The position numbers and the translations under genes are program-made. The notes under the pieces were generated by a model. That model saw only the letters and a program-made list of their open reading frames with translations. It made no database searches and was not told the origin of the DNA. A stretch of 58,073 bases of DNA, taken from sequence record PZ445420.1; one strand, written 5' to 3'. Shown here in pieces: positions 40,479 to 46,828 of this stretch. Position 1 is the first letter of the stretch. Every line of letters starts with the position of its first letter. The DNA comes from a phage.

Positions 40479-40498
40479 GGGGGTACACAAGTACCCCC
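40479..40498 (-). terminator. hairpin/terminator immediately upstream of gene 39992..40468
   Basis: 8-bp stem GGGGGTAC/GTACCCCC with ACAA loop; on minus strand followed by TATTTTTTG. Confidence 0.45.
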
Positions 40499-41091: not shown

Positions 41092-41156
41092 AATTAATTC
41101 CCTTGTTTACCTGCAAATAATATAACATGTGAAAAGAGTTGAATACTATGACCACA

Positions 41157-41357
41157 TTATTTATCTTTTACCTCCAGCTCCAGCTCTATGACATTCAAGA
41201 TTACAAGACCAGTCCAACAGTTCTGTTCACGAATCAGTTGTTCAACTTCACGGATGGTCTCAATGCGTATATCTGGCATAGTAACTTCTACATTACCGAA
41301 TCCCTGCTGGGATTGGTCTTTCACGAAGTGGTAGCTGACCATAAATTTTCTAGCCAT
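41157..41357 (-). CDS. hypothetical protein, paralogous to C-terminal domain of 42851..43414
   Basis: 66 aa; shares RKFMVSY...GFGNV...MPD...EVE...ILNVIELE pattern. Confidence 0.4.
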   Translation of the reverse strand: MARKFMVSYHFVKDQSQQGFGNVEVTMPDIRIETIREVEQLIREQNCWTGLVILNVIELELEVKDK

Positions 41358-41686
41358 TATTTTATTGCCTTAGTGAAATCTAAATTATTCAACTTATGGG
41401 CGAGCTTGGAAATAGCTTCATCATAGCCATCGTAATTACATTTAAGGTTCGCCATTTCAATGATAAGCTGAGCCATTTCACCTGCACATGCAAACGCACG
41501 AACGTTAGCAGCAAGTTCGTTCTGTTTCCGCGCATACGCATCCGCGTTGAAGTCATTTACATGGTCTTCCATACTGAACACAACCTGAGCGATAGCGCCA
41601 TGTTGAGGGGCGCTGATGCTGACATGGTTGTCCGCCCAACCTTCTTCAACTGTCCATTCTCCTGTACTACCATGAAATCTAGCCAT
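41357..41686 (-). CDS. hypothetical protein
   Basis: 109-aa co-oriented ORF. Confidence 0.4.
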   Translation of the reverse strand: MARFHGSTGEWTVEEGWADNHVSISAPQHGAIAQVVFSMEDHVNDFNADAYARKQNELAANVRAFACAGEMAQLIIEMANLKCNYDGYDEAISKLAHKLNNLDFTKAIK

Positions 41687-41771
41687 TCTTAGTCTCCTTA
41701 AAGGCTTTTAATACTTGCAATAAATATAACAGGCCCTGGTTAGGATTGTAAACAACAGGGCCACTTTATAT

Positions 41772-42263
41772 TCATTCTAATCTTTGTAAACCTTTATAAT
41801 TAATTTTTAATTCACACCACCAATCTGGTGCTAAATACTGACCAAGTGTATTCTTTTCCCAACCTCGATCAATTAATAAATTTAAAACTTCAGGTTTTAA
41901 CTTAGACGCAATTCTTTTCGGTACAAGTACGGTATATACATAATAGCAACCTTTATCTGTTTCGTTCCATCTTAGCAAACCAAGACGACAAAGTCGTCCA
42001 AGAATTCCGTTTGAGGGCCTGTTAAACGCTACACACAAATCAGTCATCACTAATTCTGAAGAAATAAGGTTGATAAGCTGAAGATCTTCCTCTAATCTCC
42101 ACTTTAAACCGGCATTACAACCATTACAATTTTCAGGTAAGTTACCGGCGTGCTTTACATAACGTTTAGCTTGATGTTGCTGGAATTTATTCCAGTTCTT
42201 CTCTTCTTTATCCATTTGTAGCACCCCTATTGGCCGACTATCAAGATGTGATTTAAAGCTCAT
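41772..42263 (-). CDS. hypothetical protein (Cys-containing)
   Basis: 163-aa ORF. Confidence 0.4.
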   Translation of the reverse strand: MSFKSHLDSRPIGVLQMDKEEKNWNKFQQHQAKRYVKHAGNLPENCNGCNAGLKWRLEEDLQLINLISSELVMTDLCVAFNRPSNGILGRLCRLGLLRWNETDKGCYYVYTVLVPKRIASKLKPEVLNLLIDRGWEKNTLGQYLAPDWWCELKINYKGLQRLE

Positions 42264-42407
42264 TACAACCCTTAACGAAATCTTTCGTCTAATTGAGATT
42301 CAGGAACGATACGAACTTTGGGCATCGTATGCACTTCATTTCCTTGTCGTAGTTTGAGCGGAAAGTATAAGGCTTCCATCCTAACACCTTGTATATTTTG
42401 CTGGGCA

Positions 42408-42644
42408 TTAGTGTAGATTCTCTTTAGGTTGTTCTTCGCTCGTCATAAGGTGAGCTAATACGCTACATGTGTTTGATTTCTGCCAGGCTTTCTCAATTTC
42501 ATCTAACGAGGATTCTGGTTTACATATGCGGTAGGCTTCTATAAAGGAATTCTGGGCTGCTTCAATGATTGCCAGAGACGCTAACACTCTTTCGTCTAGC
42601 ATCATCATTTCTTCACGTTTATTACACATATTATTTCTCCTCAA
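42408..42644 (-). CDS. hypothetical protein
   Basis: 78-aa ORF coupled to next gene. Confidence 0.35.
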   Translation of the reverse strand: MRRNNMCNKREEMMMLDERVLASLAIIEAAQNSFIEAYRICKPESSLDEIEKAWQKSNTCSVLAHLMTSEEQPKENLH

Positions 42645-42850
42645 TGTTTATCAGAAATTATACCTAGTTTATCTTCAATTATTTCAATTCGTGTGAATAA
42701 TCTATCAATATACTCGGACTTAGTATCTTCATCTATACGATGTGATTGATTAGAACCGCAATTCGGACAGATGTACTGGTTAGTCAACACTTCCCTCTGA
42801 GAAGGTCGATCCATACCAGCTTCGCATTCATCGCAGTATATAAAGGCCAT
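42641..42850 (-). CDS. small zinc-ribbon protein (CxxC...CxxC)
   Basis: 69 aa; CDEC...CPNCG. Confidence 0.4.
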   Translation of the reverse strand: MAFIYCDECEAGMDRPSQREVLTNQYICPNCGSNQSHRIDEDTKSEYIDRLFTRIEIIEDKLGIISDKH

Positions 42851-43414
42851 TTATTTCTCCAATTCAATAATGTTTAGAATAATCACCTTATCAACTTCAA
42901 TCTGTCCCTTGATTATTTTTTCAACTTCTTGAATTGACTCCATACTAACATCTGGCATAATCATACTTACATTTCCAAAACCTGGAGTAAGTAAACCAGC
43001 TTTACTAAAGCTATAAGACACCATGAATTTTCTACGGTTTTCGGTGACTTGCTCAGTCTGTTCACACTGGTTACATTGATCTCCCATAAATACAGGATCC
43101 TTTTCTGTTTCGTTAATACATTGGATAAGTTGATGTATAGTTACATCAACATAAATGTCACTACCCTGAAGCTCTTCTACGAATTGATCTTCGCAACGAA
43201 TCGGATTGTGCATAGTGCCAATTTCATAAACTTGAACATGAGGGATAAGTGGTAATAAATATATTCTTACCAGTTTTATCAGAATTTGGTGTGGATCCCT
43301 TTCATCTAAACCGATATTGTTATCCTCGCAAAAATAATCAACAATATCACCATCACCGAAACCAAACTTACTTGCTAAACTTGCAGCAAGAAGCCTTATA
43401 ACATTACCCTTCAT
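42851..43414 (-). CDS. hypothetical protein with C-terminal domain paralogous to 41157..41357
   Basis: 187 aa. Confidence 0.4.
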   Translation of the reverse strand: MKGNVIRLLAASLASKFGFGDGDIVDYFCEDNNIGLDERDPHQILIKLVRIYLLPLIPHVQVYEIGTMHNPIRCEDQFVEELQGSDIYVDVTIHQLIQCINETEKDPVFMGDQCNQCEQTEQVTENRRKFMVSYSFSKAGLLTPGFGNVSMIMPDVSMESIQEVEKIIKGQIEVDKVIILNIIELEK

Positions 43415-43428
43415 TTAAGCACCCCGAG

Positions 43429-43626
43429 TCAAAAGAACGTACCAGTAAGCACATACAACACAGCGTCGCGCAGTGTTGGTAACAAAGGTGAGCAGTTAGG
43501 AACGCTGTAGAATTTACGTGATCCCACTTTAACACTCACTATTGTAATAGAACGTTTATTGCGCTCTACTGCGTAGAGACCACCACCGAGACGACGGACT
43601 TTATATAGAGATTGATGCTTTTGCAT
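43429..43626 (-). CDS. hypothetical protein
   Basis: 65-aa ORF. Confidence 0.3.
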   Translation of the reverse strand: MQKHQSLYKVRRLGGGLYAVERNKRSITIVSVKVGSRKFYSVPNCSPLLPTLRDAVLYVLTGTFF

Positions 43627-43643: not shown

Positions 43644-43922
43644 TCATTTGCTGACACGTATGGCTCTACCTGTTAAGAAGGTGTATCCACAGTGCCGCAT
43701 TAAGTCACGTTCTTCTATTACACTTCGTAACTGGCGTGACAGCGTTTCATAGTAAGGACGGGCCTCGTTCTTACTAATAGCTAAAGCATAGGCGAACAGT
43801 TGCTCCGAGTCAATACGATTAGACTTGATTCTTTTGATTGCCTGCTCAATTCCTGGGAACTCTTCATCCTGGTATAGAGCACCGTACACAATTTTGATAG
43901 CTGCTAGATTGTAACTGGACAT
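43644..43922 (-). CDS. hypothetical protein
   Basis: 92-aa ORF. Confidence 0.35.
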   Translation of the reverse strand: MSSYNLAAIKIVYGALYQDEEFPGIEQAIKRIKSNRIDSEQLFAYALAISKNEARPYYETLSRQLRSVIEERDLMRHCGYTFLTGRAIRVSK

Positions 43923-44254: not shown

Positions 44255-44281
44255 AATGGGCGCATATAGCGCCCATTTTTA
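44255..44281. terminator. bidirectional rho-independent terminator
   Basis: Perfect 9-bp stem AATGGGCGC/GCGCCCATT with ATATA loop, T-run on + strand and A/T run upstream. Confidence 0.6.
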
Positions 44282-46828
44282 TAACTTAATGACTTCGTTC
44301 ATTCTCTCAATGTCTACCAAATAACATTTCATTCTTGGTGGTACAAAATCAGGACCGAATAAACTTGAGAAGTCCATGGGTCTCATTTCGGCAAGAACTT
44401 CCATAGACATCAGACCATAAATTGTATTGTCTATGACCTGCAATATGTTGTCGTTTCTTGTCTGCTTGAATGCTTTAAATTGCCTACAATAAGTGCATAA
44501 ATCACTCCGTGTGACTATAAATGAGTCCTTAAACATTGGGAACCGTTTATACACGTAAGCCTTTACCTCCCCATCCAAGAACTTCTTGATAGAGTTGAGC
44601 ATTATTTTCTCACGACTTGTACTGTCCGTAGAACCGATTTGCCCACTGTTACGCTTCTCTAAGAAACGCTCGTTACCCTGATCGATAAATGACTCAGCCC
44701 AACGATAATGTTCCATAGTAACAACTGGTCGTTCACTGTTATCCGCAACAGCAAGAAGAGAAGCTATACGCAATACCTTCAACGCTTTCCTTGTGTACAT
44801 CTGACGAATTACTTCGTCTTGCACCTGCTCACCATCATTGCCGCTGTTCAGGAACTTCGCAACAACATTATCAAGATTATCAAAAGCTTCGTGTACCTCT
44901 GCTTCCATTTCAACATAGCATGGAGCAGTCCCTGACATAATACGCACAGCTTGTTTATAGATAGCTCCAATAGTGCGTAGAATTGCTTCTGGATATTCCA
45001 GGAGCATACTTTTATTCATCAACGGTCTGTCAGCTGTACATTCCCATGCGATAATACGGGACATGAAGCCACTCGACATCATGCGGTCATCAACGTTCCC
45101 GTAAAATTCATCCGGTGTCGTTTCACCTGCAAAACTATACGCCTTGACCTTACCGCCAGCAGTCGTATTATCTTTACTAGAGTGCTTTGAACCACCAGAG
45201 AAAGCATAGAAATGCCCCTTGTCATAAAGGGAAAGCATTTCATCCATAATGTCTTTAGCTTTACCGACTTCCATCTTACCGTTACGGAAAAACGCACCGA
45301 CTTCAGTCTTATAGTTAATGGATGAGCCACAAGACATAATGGACGTATCCATTATAACGTCCTTGCGCAATGCAGCATCAGACGCATAGGTACTTGTATC
45401 CAGGACACGTTCAATACCAAATATCTGCTGTCCATCTTGACCGCCATAATTGGATACTTGAGAAAGAATAGTTTCAATGTTAGAGCGAAACGCTTCTTTA
45501 CCAATACCAGAACGTGCAATTAATACAAAGTAGTTATTCAGACCGCTTCGTGTGACTGTGTTCCACGCTTTACCGCACATACCACTAAATAAAGCAAGAG
45601 CAGACAAAATACTAATGTCTTTAATAGGCAACAGGCTCGCTTTATACATATTACGTGCAACCTCGCCCATAAAGCCCGGAGGCCAAGCGAGACCGTCCGC
45701 CTGCTCTTCAGTGTAATTACCATCTGTGGTCAACACTTCTTCAGGTGGGCGTTCTGGTGTAGTTGCTTGACGTAGTTTTTCAGTGCGCTCTATAGCTGCA
45801 TTAACGTTATTCTGAACTATCTGCATAAGTCCCATAGATTTAACATGGGCATCATAGCGATAGTTGCGAATCATTCTATCCAGGTGATACGGACGTTTAA
45901 TTTTTTCACCAGGCAGACGACGGGAATCATCGTAACGACTACTCATTGGTGAATACATGAACAGACGTCTTACCTGGAAATTGTACTTACTCTTAAAGCA
46001 AAGAAAGTCAATTAATGCAAACTCTGCTTCAGACTGAGAAGGGAAACAACGTTCGCCAATAGAAGTATCAACTTCTTCAGCTCTCCAACGACCTTCCCAT
46101 AGCTGCTTAAACAATGTTCCGTTTTCTTGTTCGCACAACTGAATGTAGACATCCTGGTCTTCCATTGCATATGGGTCGTTACTAAAATCTTCTTCAGTAA
46201 GTTCCAGCATTTGGAAGCCATCAGACTCATTAATCTCACTCATCTCAGACATAAGTTGATGAATGAGATTAGCAATATACCCTTCGCTTTCACTGCCTGG
46301 AGCACCAGACACAGTGCGCGGAGTAATATCCCAGTGATCACCTGTACAAATAATGAAGCGATATTGTGAATACACTTCCACACCATCACGGCGCTTACCA
46401 GCCTGAGGGATGGAATAAATCCATGTATGCAGCCCATCTCCACTTCTGGAAATTTCCGTATAACTATGGAACGATTCAACAATTTTCTTATATCGCTCAC
46501 CAGCGACTTTCTTTTCCATTTCAGACATGGTGTCTTTAATATCCATGTCTATACAACAGAACGGGTCACTTGGAAGTAAATAGAAACCTAAACGCAGGTT
46601 ATGACCGATTTCATTATAGTAACGAACACAACGTTCAGCATCTTCAAAAGACATTAATAAATGCAGGTTAGACGGTTTCTTATCATTACCATCTTTACGA
46701 AGTGGGACCATATCCCCTAAATCATCGTCCCATACATAAGGTTGTTTTTCTGATGATGTACCTGGATGGAAACCGCAGACAGCCCACTGTTCGTATTGTT
46801 TAATTTCTTGAGGAAAAAGTTCCAGCAT
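44279..46828 (-). CDS. DNA primase-polymerase (AEP/PrimPol-type N-terminal domain) with large C-terminal domain
   Basis: 849 aa; CCIDMDIKD (DxD) and SGDGLHTWIY (sGxGxH) motifs typical of PrimPol domains. Confidence 0.55.
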   Translation of the reverse strand: MLELFPQEIKQYEQWAVCGFHPGTSSEKQPYVWDDDLGDMVPLRKDGNDKKPSNLHLLMSFEDAERCVRYYNEIGHNLRLGFYLLPSDPFCCIDMDIKDTMSEMEKKVAGERYKKIVESFHSYTEISRSGDGLHTWIYSIPQAGKRRDGVEVYSQYRFIICTGDHWDITPRTVSGAPGSESEGYIANLIHQLMSEMSEINESDGFQMLELTEEDFSNDPYAMEDQDVYIQLCEQENGTLFKQLWEGRWRAEEVDTSIGERCFPSQSEAEFALIDFLCFKSKYNFQVRRLFMYSPMSSRYDDSRRLPGEKIKRPYHLDRMIRNYRYDAHVKSMGLMQIVQNNVNAAIERTEKLRQATTPERPPEEVLTTDGNYTEEQADGLAWPPGFMGEVARNMYKASLLPIKDISILSALALFSGMCGKAWNTVTRSGLNNYFVLIARSGIGKEAFRSNIETILSQVSNYGGQDGQQIFGIERVLDTSTYASDAALRKDVIMDTSIMSCGSSINYKTEVGAFFRNGKMEVGKAKDIMDEMLSLYDKGHFYAFSGGSKHSSKDNTTAGGKVKAYSFAGETTPDEFYGNVDDRMMSSGFMSRIIAWECTADRPLMNKSMLLEYPEAILRTIGAIYKQAVRIMSGTAPCYVEMEAEVHEAFDNLDNVVAKFLNSGNDGEQVQDEVIRQMYTRKALKVLRIASLLAVADNSERPVVTMEHYRWAESFIDQGNERFLEKRNSGQIGSTDSTSREKIMLNSIKKFLDGEVKAYVYKRFPMFKDSFIVTRSDLCTYCRQFKAFKQTRNDNILQVIDNTIYGLMSMEVLAEMRPMDFSSLFGPDFVPPRMKCYLVDIERMNEVIKL

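Follow-up and report, generated by a model that had tools for sequence, protein, structure and literature searches.

Probable joining by recombination of two members of an undescribed small-protein family in the phage genome PZ445420.1

When two genes of the same phage genome encode the same domain, was one copied from the other, or did they arrive separately? This question is raised by a locus in the phage sequence PZ445420.1 (58,073 nucleotides, called the window below), in which a 66-amino-acid (aa) protein resembles the C-terminal end of a 187-aa protein. A preliminary description of this DNA had proposed an old duplication kept under selection, of the kind often seen for host-interaction or inhibitor domains. 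The pair seems instead to consist of two xenologous members of one family joined by recombination, not by in-place duplication: the 187-aa protein is best explained as a fusion assembled in a hypervariable slot, and the 66-aa gene appears to have been imported on a cassette. We consider this account of the anatomy and evolution of the locus very probable.

The window belongs with the Nonagvirus phages. Its nearest records are FritzHoffmann (Bas20; 95-97% DNA identity) and SE1, followed by JenK1, JenP1, JenP2, 9g, BRET and others. These relatives are siphoviruses of the Queuovirinae, whose DNA carries a 7-deazaguanine modification (PMC8594841).

Homology of the two proteins

The two genes under study are the following.

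41157..41357, minus strand: stand-alone 66-aa family member (bas19_0052), an open reading frame (ORF)
42851..43414, minus strand: 187-aa two-module protein (ORF), with an N module, a disordered linker and a C-terminal family module

The 66-aa product is 100% identical to the hypothetical protein bas19_0052 of Escherichia phage ChristophMerian (Bas19), and its start codon shares bases with the stop codon of the 109-aa gene upstream (TAATG). The 187-aa protein has counterparts in FritzHoffmann (97.9% identity) and SE1 (95.7%).

BLASTP aligned residues 3-60 of the 66-aa protein with residues 128-186 of the 187-aa protein, with 31 of the 59 positions identical (53%), 71% positives and one 1-residue gap (58.2 bits, E 3e-17). 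The shared pattern first pointed out in the preliminary description (RKFMVSY..GFGNV..MPD..E.I.EVE..ILN(I/V)IELE) is exactly what aligns. Shuffled controls had been proposed there as the yardstick, and the alignment lies far outside them: the Smith-Waterman score is 138, against a mean of 28 (standard deviation 4.6, maximum 54) over 2000 shuffles of either partner, i.e. z ~24. That the copies differ at the nucleotide level also held, as the aligned DNA of the two modules is identical at 97 of 174 positions (56%) and at 38% of third codon positions. Synonymous differences between the modules are saturated (proportion of synonymous differences, pS, 0.93), compared with a non-synonymous proportion (pN) of 0.32. 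The ratio of non-synonymous to synonymous substitution rates (dN/dS) was 0.14 for the 66-aa gene against two orthologues (L011 and L012; labels of this form denote the loci compared), 0.12 for the N-terminal part of the 187-aa gene against its homologue in Seuratvirus SA80RD, and 0.32 for the 187-aa gene against phage FritzHoffmann.

Judged from these comparisons, both ORFs are real genes under purifying selection, and the two segments are homologous and anciently diverged. Chance similarity or non-coding ORFs, for which nothing speaks beyond the small size of the ORFs, have a negligible probability given the z value, the dN/dS range of 0.12-0.32, the ~87 related clusters found by the family search and a confidently predicted fold (see below). 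The idea of an old duplication kept under selection is thus upheld for homology, ancient divergence and selection on each copy; duplication within this genome is not supported, given the distribution of the cassette and the contrast in synonymous divergence set out below.

Probable lateral origin of the 66-aa gene

The 66-aa gene lies within a stretch that interrupts the homology with FritzHoffmann.

41117..42314, no strand assigned: 1.2-kb cassette with the 66-aa, 109-aa and 163-aa genes (FritzHoffmann homology ends at 41116 and resumes at 42315)
42289..42408, minus strand: 39-codon remnant of a 'ZPR1 zinc finger' gene, truncated by the cassette (ORF and FritzHoffmann comparison)

In FritzHoffmann, the site of the cassette is occupied by a 180-bp stretch inside the 'ZPR1 zinc finger' gene, which is intact (102 aa) in FritzHoffmann itself, in ESCO3 and in L026 and L029-L034. 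The cassette is absent from both closest relatives, FritzHoffmann and SE1, where an intact zinc-finger gene stands at the site, and from ESCO3-type genomes. By blastn, the cassette DNA (41100-42330) had no match in 50,697 phage records. The same gene order (109-aa, 66-aa, 59-aa, 91-aa) was found on a metagenomic contig of 2.8 kb (L025).

Could the second copy nevertheless have arisen by an old tandem or dispersed duplication within the phage lineage, both copies then being kept by selection? At 53% identity, with 1.5 kb between them on one strand and in a single transcription block, the copies would fit such an event. The 66-aa gene, however, sits on a cassette that the nearest relatives lack, and its DNA is 82-91% identical to a single-copy gene of the Queuovirinae-like contigs L011, L012 and L014, while the flanking genes are only 59-74% identical. 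Against the distant lineage L014, the synonymous divergence (dS) of the 66-aa gene is 0.26; that of its neighbours is 0.70 for a helix-turn-helix (HTH)-like gene, 2.5 for the 91-aa gene and 3.5 for the 92-aa gene, and is saturated for the PD-(D/E)XK and primase genes. The protein sequences point the same way: the 66-aa protein is 77-85% identical to its L011, L012 and L014 counterparts, and the C module of the 187-aa protein, at 63% identity to the L011 protein and 56% to the L014 protein, resembles these more than it does the 66-aa protein (53%). The two copies are therefore not mutual closest relatives, nor do both occur in the nearest genomes, as would be expected of an intragenomic paralogue pair. 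A family-profile scan of the locus stretch in related Queuovirinae (Nonagvirus-type) loci found one family copy or none in 20 out of 21, the exception being L025, whose 2.8 kb include the 66-aa gene and end before the slot of the 187-aa gene. Duplication within the lineage is highly unlikely on this evidence. Because the dS of the 66-aa gene is 0.26 where its flanks range from 0.7 to saturation, and because the cassette has clear breakpoints, this copy was most probably imported laterally, on the cassette, from another Queuovirinae-like lineage.

For the two other cassette genes, the database matches were as follows. The 109-aa gene (41357..41686, minus strand) matched LOH1CR12 (Pfam 'Tumour suppressor protein') with 26.3 bits against a gathering score of 24.7 (E 8.5e-6), with weak matches to DUF2730 and to the seryl-tRNA synthetase N-terminal domain over the same stretch. 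For the 163-aa gene (41772..42263, minus strand), only weak PHROG matches were obtained (phrog_10107, E 6e-5), with no match in Pfam, NCBIfam or PADLOC.

Probable assembly of the 187-aa protein in a hypervariable slot

The 187-aa gene can be divided into three parts, and a fourth feature marks the edge of the slot in which it lies.

43100..43414, minus strand: N module (residues 1-105), an alpha/beta domain found as a stand-alone 107-112-aa protein in Seuratvirus, in Wifcevirus (FEC19-like) and in a Yersinia ruckeri record
43043..43099, minus strand: linker (residues 106-124, DPVFMGDQCNQCEQTEQVT), predicted to be disordered
42857..43033, minus strand: C-terminal family module (residues 128-186), homologous to the 66-aa protein (BLASTP, shuffles, family profile and structure prediction)
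43429..43626, minus strand: 65-aa N4 gp8-like gene (PF25713, N4_GP8), 14 nt upstream of the 187-aa gene, at the 5' edge of the variable slot

Each module of the 187-aa protein exists on its own elsewhere. The N module shares 74-82% of its residues with 108-aa stand-alone proteins on Seuratvirus-sized (~60-kb) contigs, ~60% with the 107-aa proteins of FEC19-like Wifcevirus phages and 49% with the Yersinia ruckeri protein; in Seuratvirus SA80RD, it stands alone in the corresponding region after the primase. At the other end, residues 117-187 align with residues 9-73 of the ESCO3/JenP2 73-aa protein (45% identity, E 6e-18). This alignment includes the CEQ motif in the linker, the C-terminal part of which matches the residues that extend the 73-aa stand-alone form at its N-terminus. 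At the DNA level, the 187-aa gene and the ESCO3 73-aa gene share their 3' ends (88.6% identity over the final 44 nt), and homology with ESCO3 starts again at the other edge of the 187-aa gene, running from the initial codons into the gp8-like gene.

The gp8-like gene, which matches PF25713 N4_GP8 (E 1.2e-17, 64.7 bits for a cut-off of 25; N4 gp8 is an inhibitor of DNA replication), is kept at this position in L001, L002, L015-L017, L026 and L029-L034. The slot that follows it varies among Nonagviruses that are >93% identical in its flanks. Phage 9g has nothing there. JenK1 and BRET have a 73-aa gene (L016 1439-1660; L017 1659-1880) of the same length as the family member, with no match to the family profile or to Pfam. 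ESCO3 (also JenP2) and 19 metagenomic contigs carry the stand-alone 73-aa gene of the family there, and the window, Bas20, SE1, L018, L019 and L026-L028 carry the fusion gene. The 187-aa protein is best explained as a recombinational fusion of the N module, the disordered linker and the 73-aa stand-alone form of other Nonagviruses. Since both modules occupy the same slot in relatives, the fusion would have arisen by recombination between N-module and C-module phages.

Two associations were rejected. According to the Rosetta-stone idea, phages with a stand-alone N module would encode the C module next door; this is not so in SA80RD or FEC19, and one 25-codon match (E 0.037) is noise. An obligatory coupling of the module with the gp8-like gene does not hold either, as L011, L012 and L014 have the module without the gp8-like gene, and 9g, JenK1 and BRET the gp8-like gene without the module.

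The gp8-like gene is annotated merely as hypothetical in relatives; in 9g it is present and unannotated (L015 1248-1445).

An undescribed family of small proteins

To delimit the family, a HMMER profile built from seven close sequences was searched exhaustively against 1.84 billion cluster representatives (E<=1e-3). This gave 89 matches, two of which look spurious, being long repeat proteins matched over a large number of short stretches. The others are nearly all stand-alone proteins of 56-75 aa. The module occupies the very C-terminus of seven members (98-178 aa) and is N-terminal in one (P0107); a few others have short extensions. Among the fusion partners is a crAss001_48 domain (E 1.8e-17). 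Weaker candidates for partners are a DUF551-like stretch (E 0.005, below the Pfam cut-off) and Cys-rich, zinc-ribbon-like N-termini recognised from the sequences.

Among 78 aligned members, the most conserved positions (numbered as in the 66-aa protein) are Y9 (92%), G19 (97%), G21 (99%), N22 (85%) and N55 (94%), with conserved hydrophobic residues at 5, 6, 7, 11, 20, 23, 25, 27, 51-54, 56, 57 and 59. All five of the former are found in the 66-aa protein, with equivalent residues in the 187-aa protein. The members are mostly acidic (median isoelectric point, pI, 5.3; median net charge -2). The 78-member profile matched the 66-aa protein with an E of 3.6e-29 and the 187-aa protein with 1.3e-20 to 1.6e-20; as both window sequences lay in the alignment behind this profile, the independent evidence consists of the pairwise E of 3e-17 and the 89 matches of the exhaustive search. 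A motif scan recovered only two true members in genomes and none in viral contigs.

In the libraries searched, no described family corresponds to this module. Neither protein had a match in Pfam (E<=1), PHROGs, NCBIfam or PADLOC, two profiles, one of them deeper, found no relative among the PDB sequences, and the 78 members searched singly against Pfam and PHROGs gave nothing consistent. Weak matches to DUF3091, CRR7, DUF167 and OST-HTH concerned one member each, were below the Pfam cut-off where a score was listed, and were rejected as noise. For known defence and anti-defence families, PADLOC and PHROGs both gave zero matches, no dedicated anti-defence library having been searched.

Members were found in phage early regions: beside ERF/Gam and replication genes (L007), in arrays of small ORFs (L008) and near a D5-type primase (L010). 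Further members are present in Salmonella phage genomes of 42-43 kb, in Escherichia and Pseudomonas phage genomes of the 150-kb class and in Klebsiella phages. Two orphans have no phage genes nearby. One (L006 8001-8216) is flanked by a TP_methylase gene and glycoside hydrolases on a contig of 1.7 Mb; the other (L021 4845-5060), in a metagenome-assembled genome of candidate division WWE3, adjoins TsaD/TsaE, upstream of a Mrr-type nuclease and GyrA. The module is an undescribed family of ~60-residue beta-beta-alpha-beta proteins, mostly stand-alone in phage early or accessory blocks.

Predicted structure

The fold was predicted with AlphaFold2. For the 66-aa protein (alignment of 38 rows), the model has a predicted local distance difference test score (pLDDT) of 90.5 and a predicted template modelling score (pTM) of 0.72. 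Its elements are two strands forming a beta hairpin (3-13 and 17-27), a helix (32-46) and a third strand (50-58), followed by a short acidic/lysine tail. The conserved Tyr lies in strand 1, the G-x-G-N opens strand 2 and the Asn belongs to strand 3. The model of the 187-aa protein (pLDDT 76.8) comprises an alpha/beta N module (residues 1-103), a stretch with pLDDT <50 (residues 104-124) and, at residues 128-184, a strand-strand-helix-strand arrangement in the same order as in the 66-aa model.

In structure searches, the full-length 187-aa model gave, via its C module, the same matches as the 66-aa model and nothing convincing for the N module. BFVD returned the JenP2 73-aa protein (template modelling score, TM, 0.85) and otherwise uncharacterised phage proteins.

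Possible functions of the module

The family has no catalytic signature or cofactor motif, and its members are small, acidic proteins. Fused members almost always carry the module at the C-terminus, after a flexible linker, joined to small, unrelated modules. We propose that it would be a non-enzymatic, mostly acidic protein-protein interaction unit. In the predicted structure, strands 1 and 3 carry conserved hydrophobic residues on both faces. Because the single helix covers only one of these, the helix-free face (approximately L6, S8, F20, N22, V52, L54 and I56) is most likely an interface, for self-association as a dimer or for a partner. The tip of the hairpin (residues 13-18) and the loop between the helix and strand 3 (residues 45-50) are the least conserved and most indel-rich regions, differ most between the two copies of the window and lie, by topology, at the same end of the domain; this variable tip is a candidate specificity surface. 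On its own, the module might be a small binder that works as a dimer; fused at the C-terminal end of other small accessory modules, it might dimerise or tether them. Its role would probably be a dispensable one in host take-over or counter-defence, through stoichiometric binding.

This mechanism, a small dimerising binder or adaptor for dispensable host take-over or counter-defence, is tentative and somewhat less likely than not. When it is combined with the family, the fusion and the import, the explanation as a whole is plausible, with its chances evenly balanced. Several points weigh against it. The exposed conserved hydrophobic face is deduced solely from the alternation of residues in predicted strands, and the alignment behind the 187-aa model had a few locally misaligned rows. 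A ligand site would explain the invariant G-x-G-N, Tyr and Asn equally well. The two orphans in ordinary bacterial chromosome settings fit a housekeeping partner as well as a phage-specific role. Finally, papers using Bas19 (BASEL-based) or Queuovirinae report whole-phage phenotypes only, with no gene-level data on either gene.

The main rival to the adaptor model is that the module itself would be an inhibitor. Its conserved sheet face would then bind one conserved bacterial protein, for instance of replication, transcription or immunity, the two copies would cover two variants or targets, and the N-terminal partners would be add-ons. The earlier suggestion of a host-interaction or inhibitor domain remains plausible from the context, a hypervariable accessory slot by an N4 gp8-like gene, and loses ground in that no known inhibitor or defence family matches. 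A single target would moreover have to be nearly universal, as family members occur in phages with widely differing hosts and in a bacterium of the candidate phyla radiation (CPR), and the two-copy state is no rule, given the single copy or none at nearly all the related loci. We regard a dedicated inhibitor as possible and somewhat doubtful.

The adaptor model could also be extended into a modular class of counter-defence or host-take-over adaptors, in which the sheet face would drive homo- or heterodimerisation and the variable tip would set target specificity. The 66-aa protein would then form a pair with the C module of the larger protein and so regulate or retarget the N effector, or else widen the range of targets, and the locus would be a two-component system built by recombination. 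This fuller scenario seems unlikely.

Another reading rests on the fold. In the models, the module resembles the ribosomal protein eL20/LX (Ribosomal_L18A), so that it might be an RNA-binding module acting on the ribosome or on RNA. PurS and PaaB fit its simple topology almost as well, though, and the alignments behind this reading have an identity of 5-19%, with 5-17% for the eL20 and archaeal LX (L18Ae) fold. None of the 78 members matched this ribosomal family in Pfam (E<=0.01), and the PDB profile search returned no eL20/LX chain. The phage family is acidic, unlike basic rRNA-binding proteins, and lacks a ribosomal context; to our knowledge, bacteria have no eL20/LX site. Because of the missing profile signal, the opposite charge and the absence of a bacterial site, the likeness is most likely one of shared simple topology and not of homology, and an action on the ribosome or on RNA has very little probability. 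A Dmd-like antitoxin neutralising a host toxin or an abortive-infection RNase has similarly little probability. T4 Dmd, p56 (against Ung) and T7 Gp2 are small phage inhibitors with alpha+beta mini-folds and no evident sequence relationship to the family.

Comparison with known systems

The locus is of a known kind: accessory early genes shuffled between related phages in a hypervariable slot, here a variable accessory slot of otherwise conserved genomes. As in hypervariable accessory slots of the moron or anti-defence type, the position after the gp8-like gene is empty or is filled by an unrelated gene, by the module on its own or by the fusion, and the second copy of the module arrived on a 1.2-kb cassette; the difference from anti-defence-type slots is that the occupants match no known families. 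The neighbouring N4 gp8-like gene likewise encodes a small early protein in the same transcription block, and in Nonagviruses the family member follows it directly. The two are unrelated in sequence, and their adjacency is not obligatory. What is new is the family itself, which is absent from the libraries searched.

These results define a small family missed by current domain libraries, with a confident predicted fold and clear boundaries. They also show, in a well-used model phage (BASEL Bas19), how accessory early genes may be assembled, with a fusion of two stand-alone modules of sister genera at a single recombination hot spot and the import of a second family member on a cassette. Natural comparators exist, namely Bas20, which lacks the 66-aa gene, and, outside BASEL, ESCO3/JenP2 (stand-alone 73-aa gene), 9g (empty slot) and JenK1/BRET (unrelated occupant), so that the function can be tested directly. 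Should the module bind anti-defence targets or host factors, the family would add a modular scaffold to the repertoire; otherwise the locus would remain a neat case of mosaic evolution. Before its function is established, the finding would hardly surprise a specialist.

Gene block and neighbouring genes

Both module genes lie on the minus strand, within a block of small genes between the primase gene (44279..46828) and the PD-(D/E)XK and dUTPase genes. The block is flanked on both sides by terminator-like hairpins, each recognised by a match to the consensus only.

40479..40498, minus strand: terminator-like hairpin closing the minus-strand small-gene block (8 pairs, 6 GC, T-rich tail)
44255..44277, minus strand: terminator-like hairpin just past the primase gene, upstream of the small-gene block (9 pairs, 6 GC)

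The number of matches in a promoter scan did not differ from that in shuffled sequence. A link between the 66-aa gene and an Aca-like HTH gene was rejected: the 59-aa HTH-like gene belongs to the conserved core of the block in every relative and has no specific link to the module.

The 92-aa gene at 43644..43922 (minus strand) is labelled 'putative cysteine protease' in relatives (phrog_17339 'protease'; calpain domain in 9g). It has no support from Pfam, where its best matches have E>0.02, and the protease annotation looks unreliable. Directly downstream of the 187-aa gene, the 69-aa protein encoded at 42641..42850 (minus strand) has two CxxC pairs, a zinc-ribbon pattern, and matches phrog_9414 (E 9e-24); its gene is present in fusion-type and BRET genomes and missing from ESCO3-type genomes. 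Over the whole window (2-kb bins), the GC skew is positive to ~18 kb, about zero at 18-22 kb, negative at ~22-50 kb and positive beyond, a pattern that agrees with blocks of genes on opposite strands.

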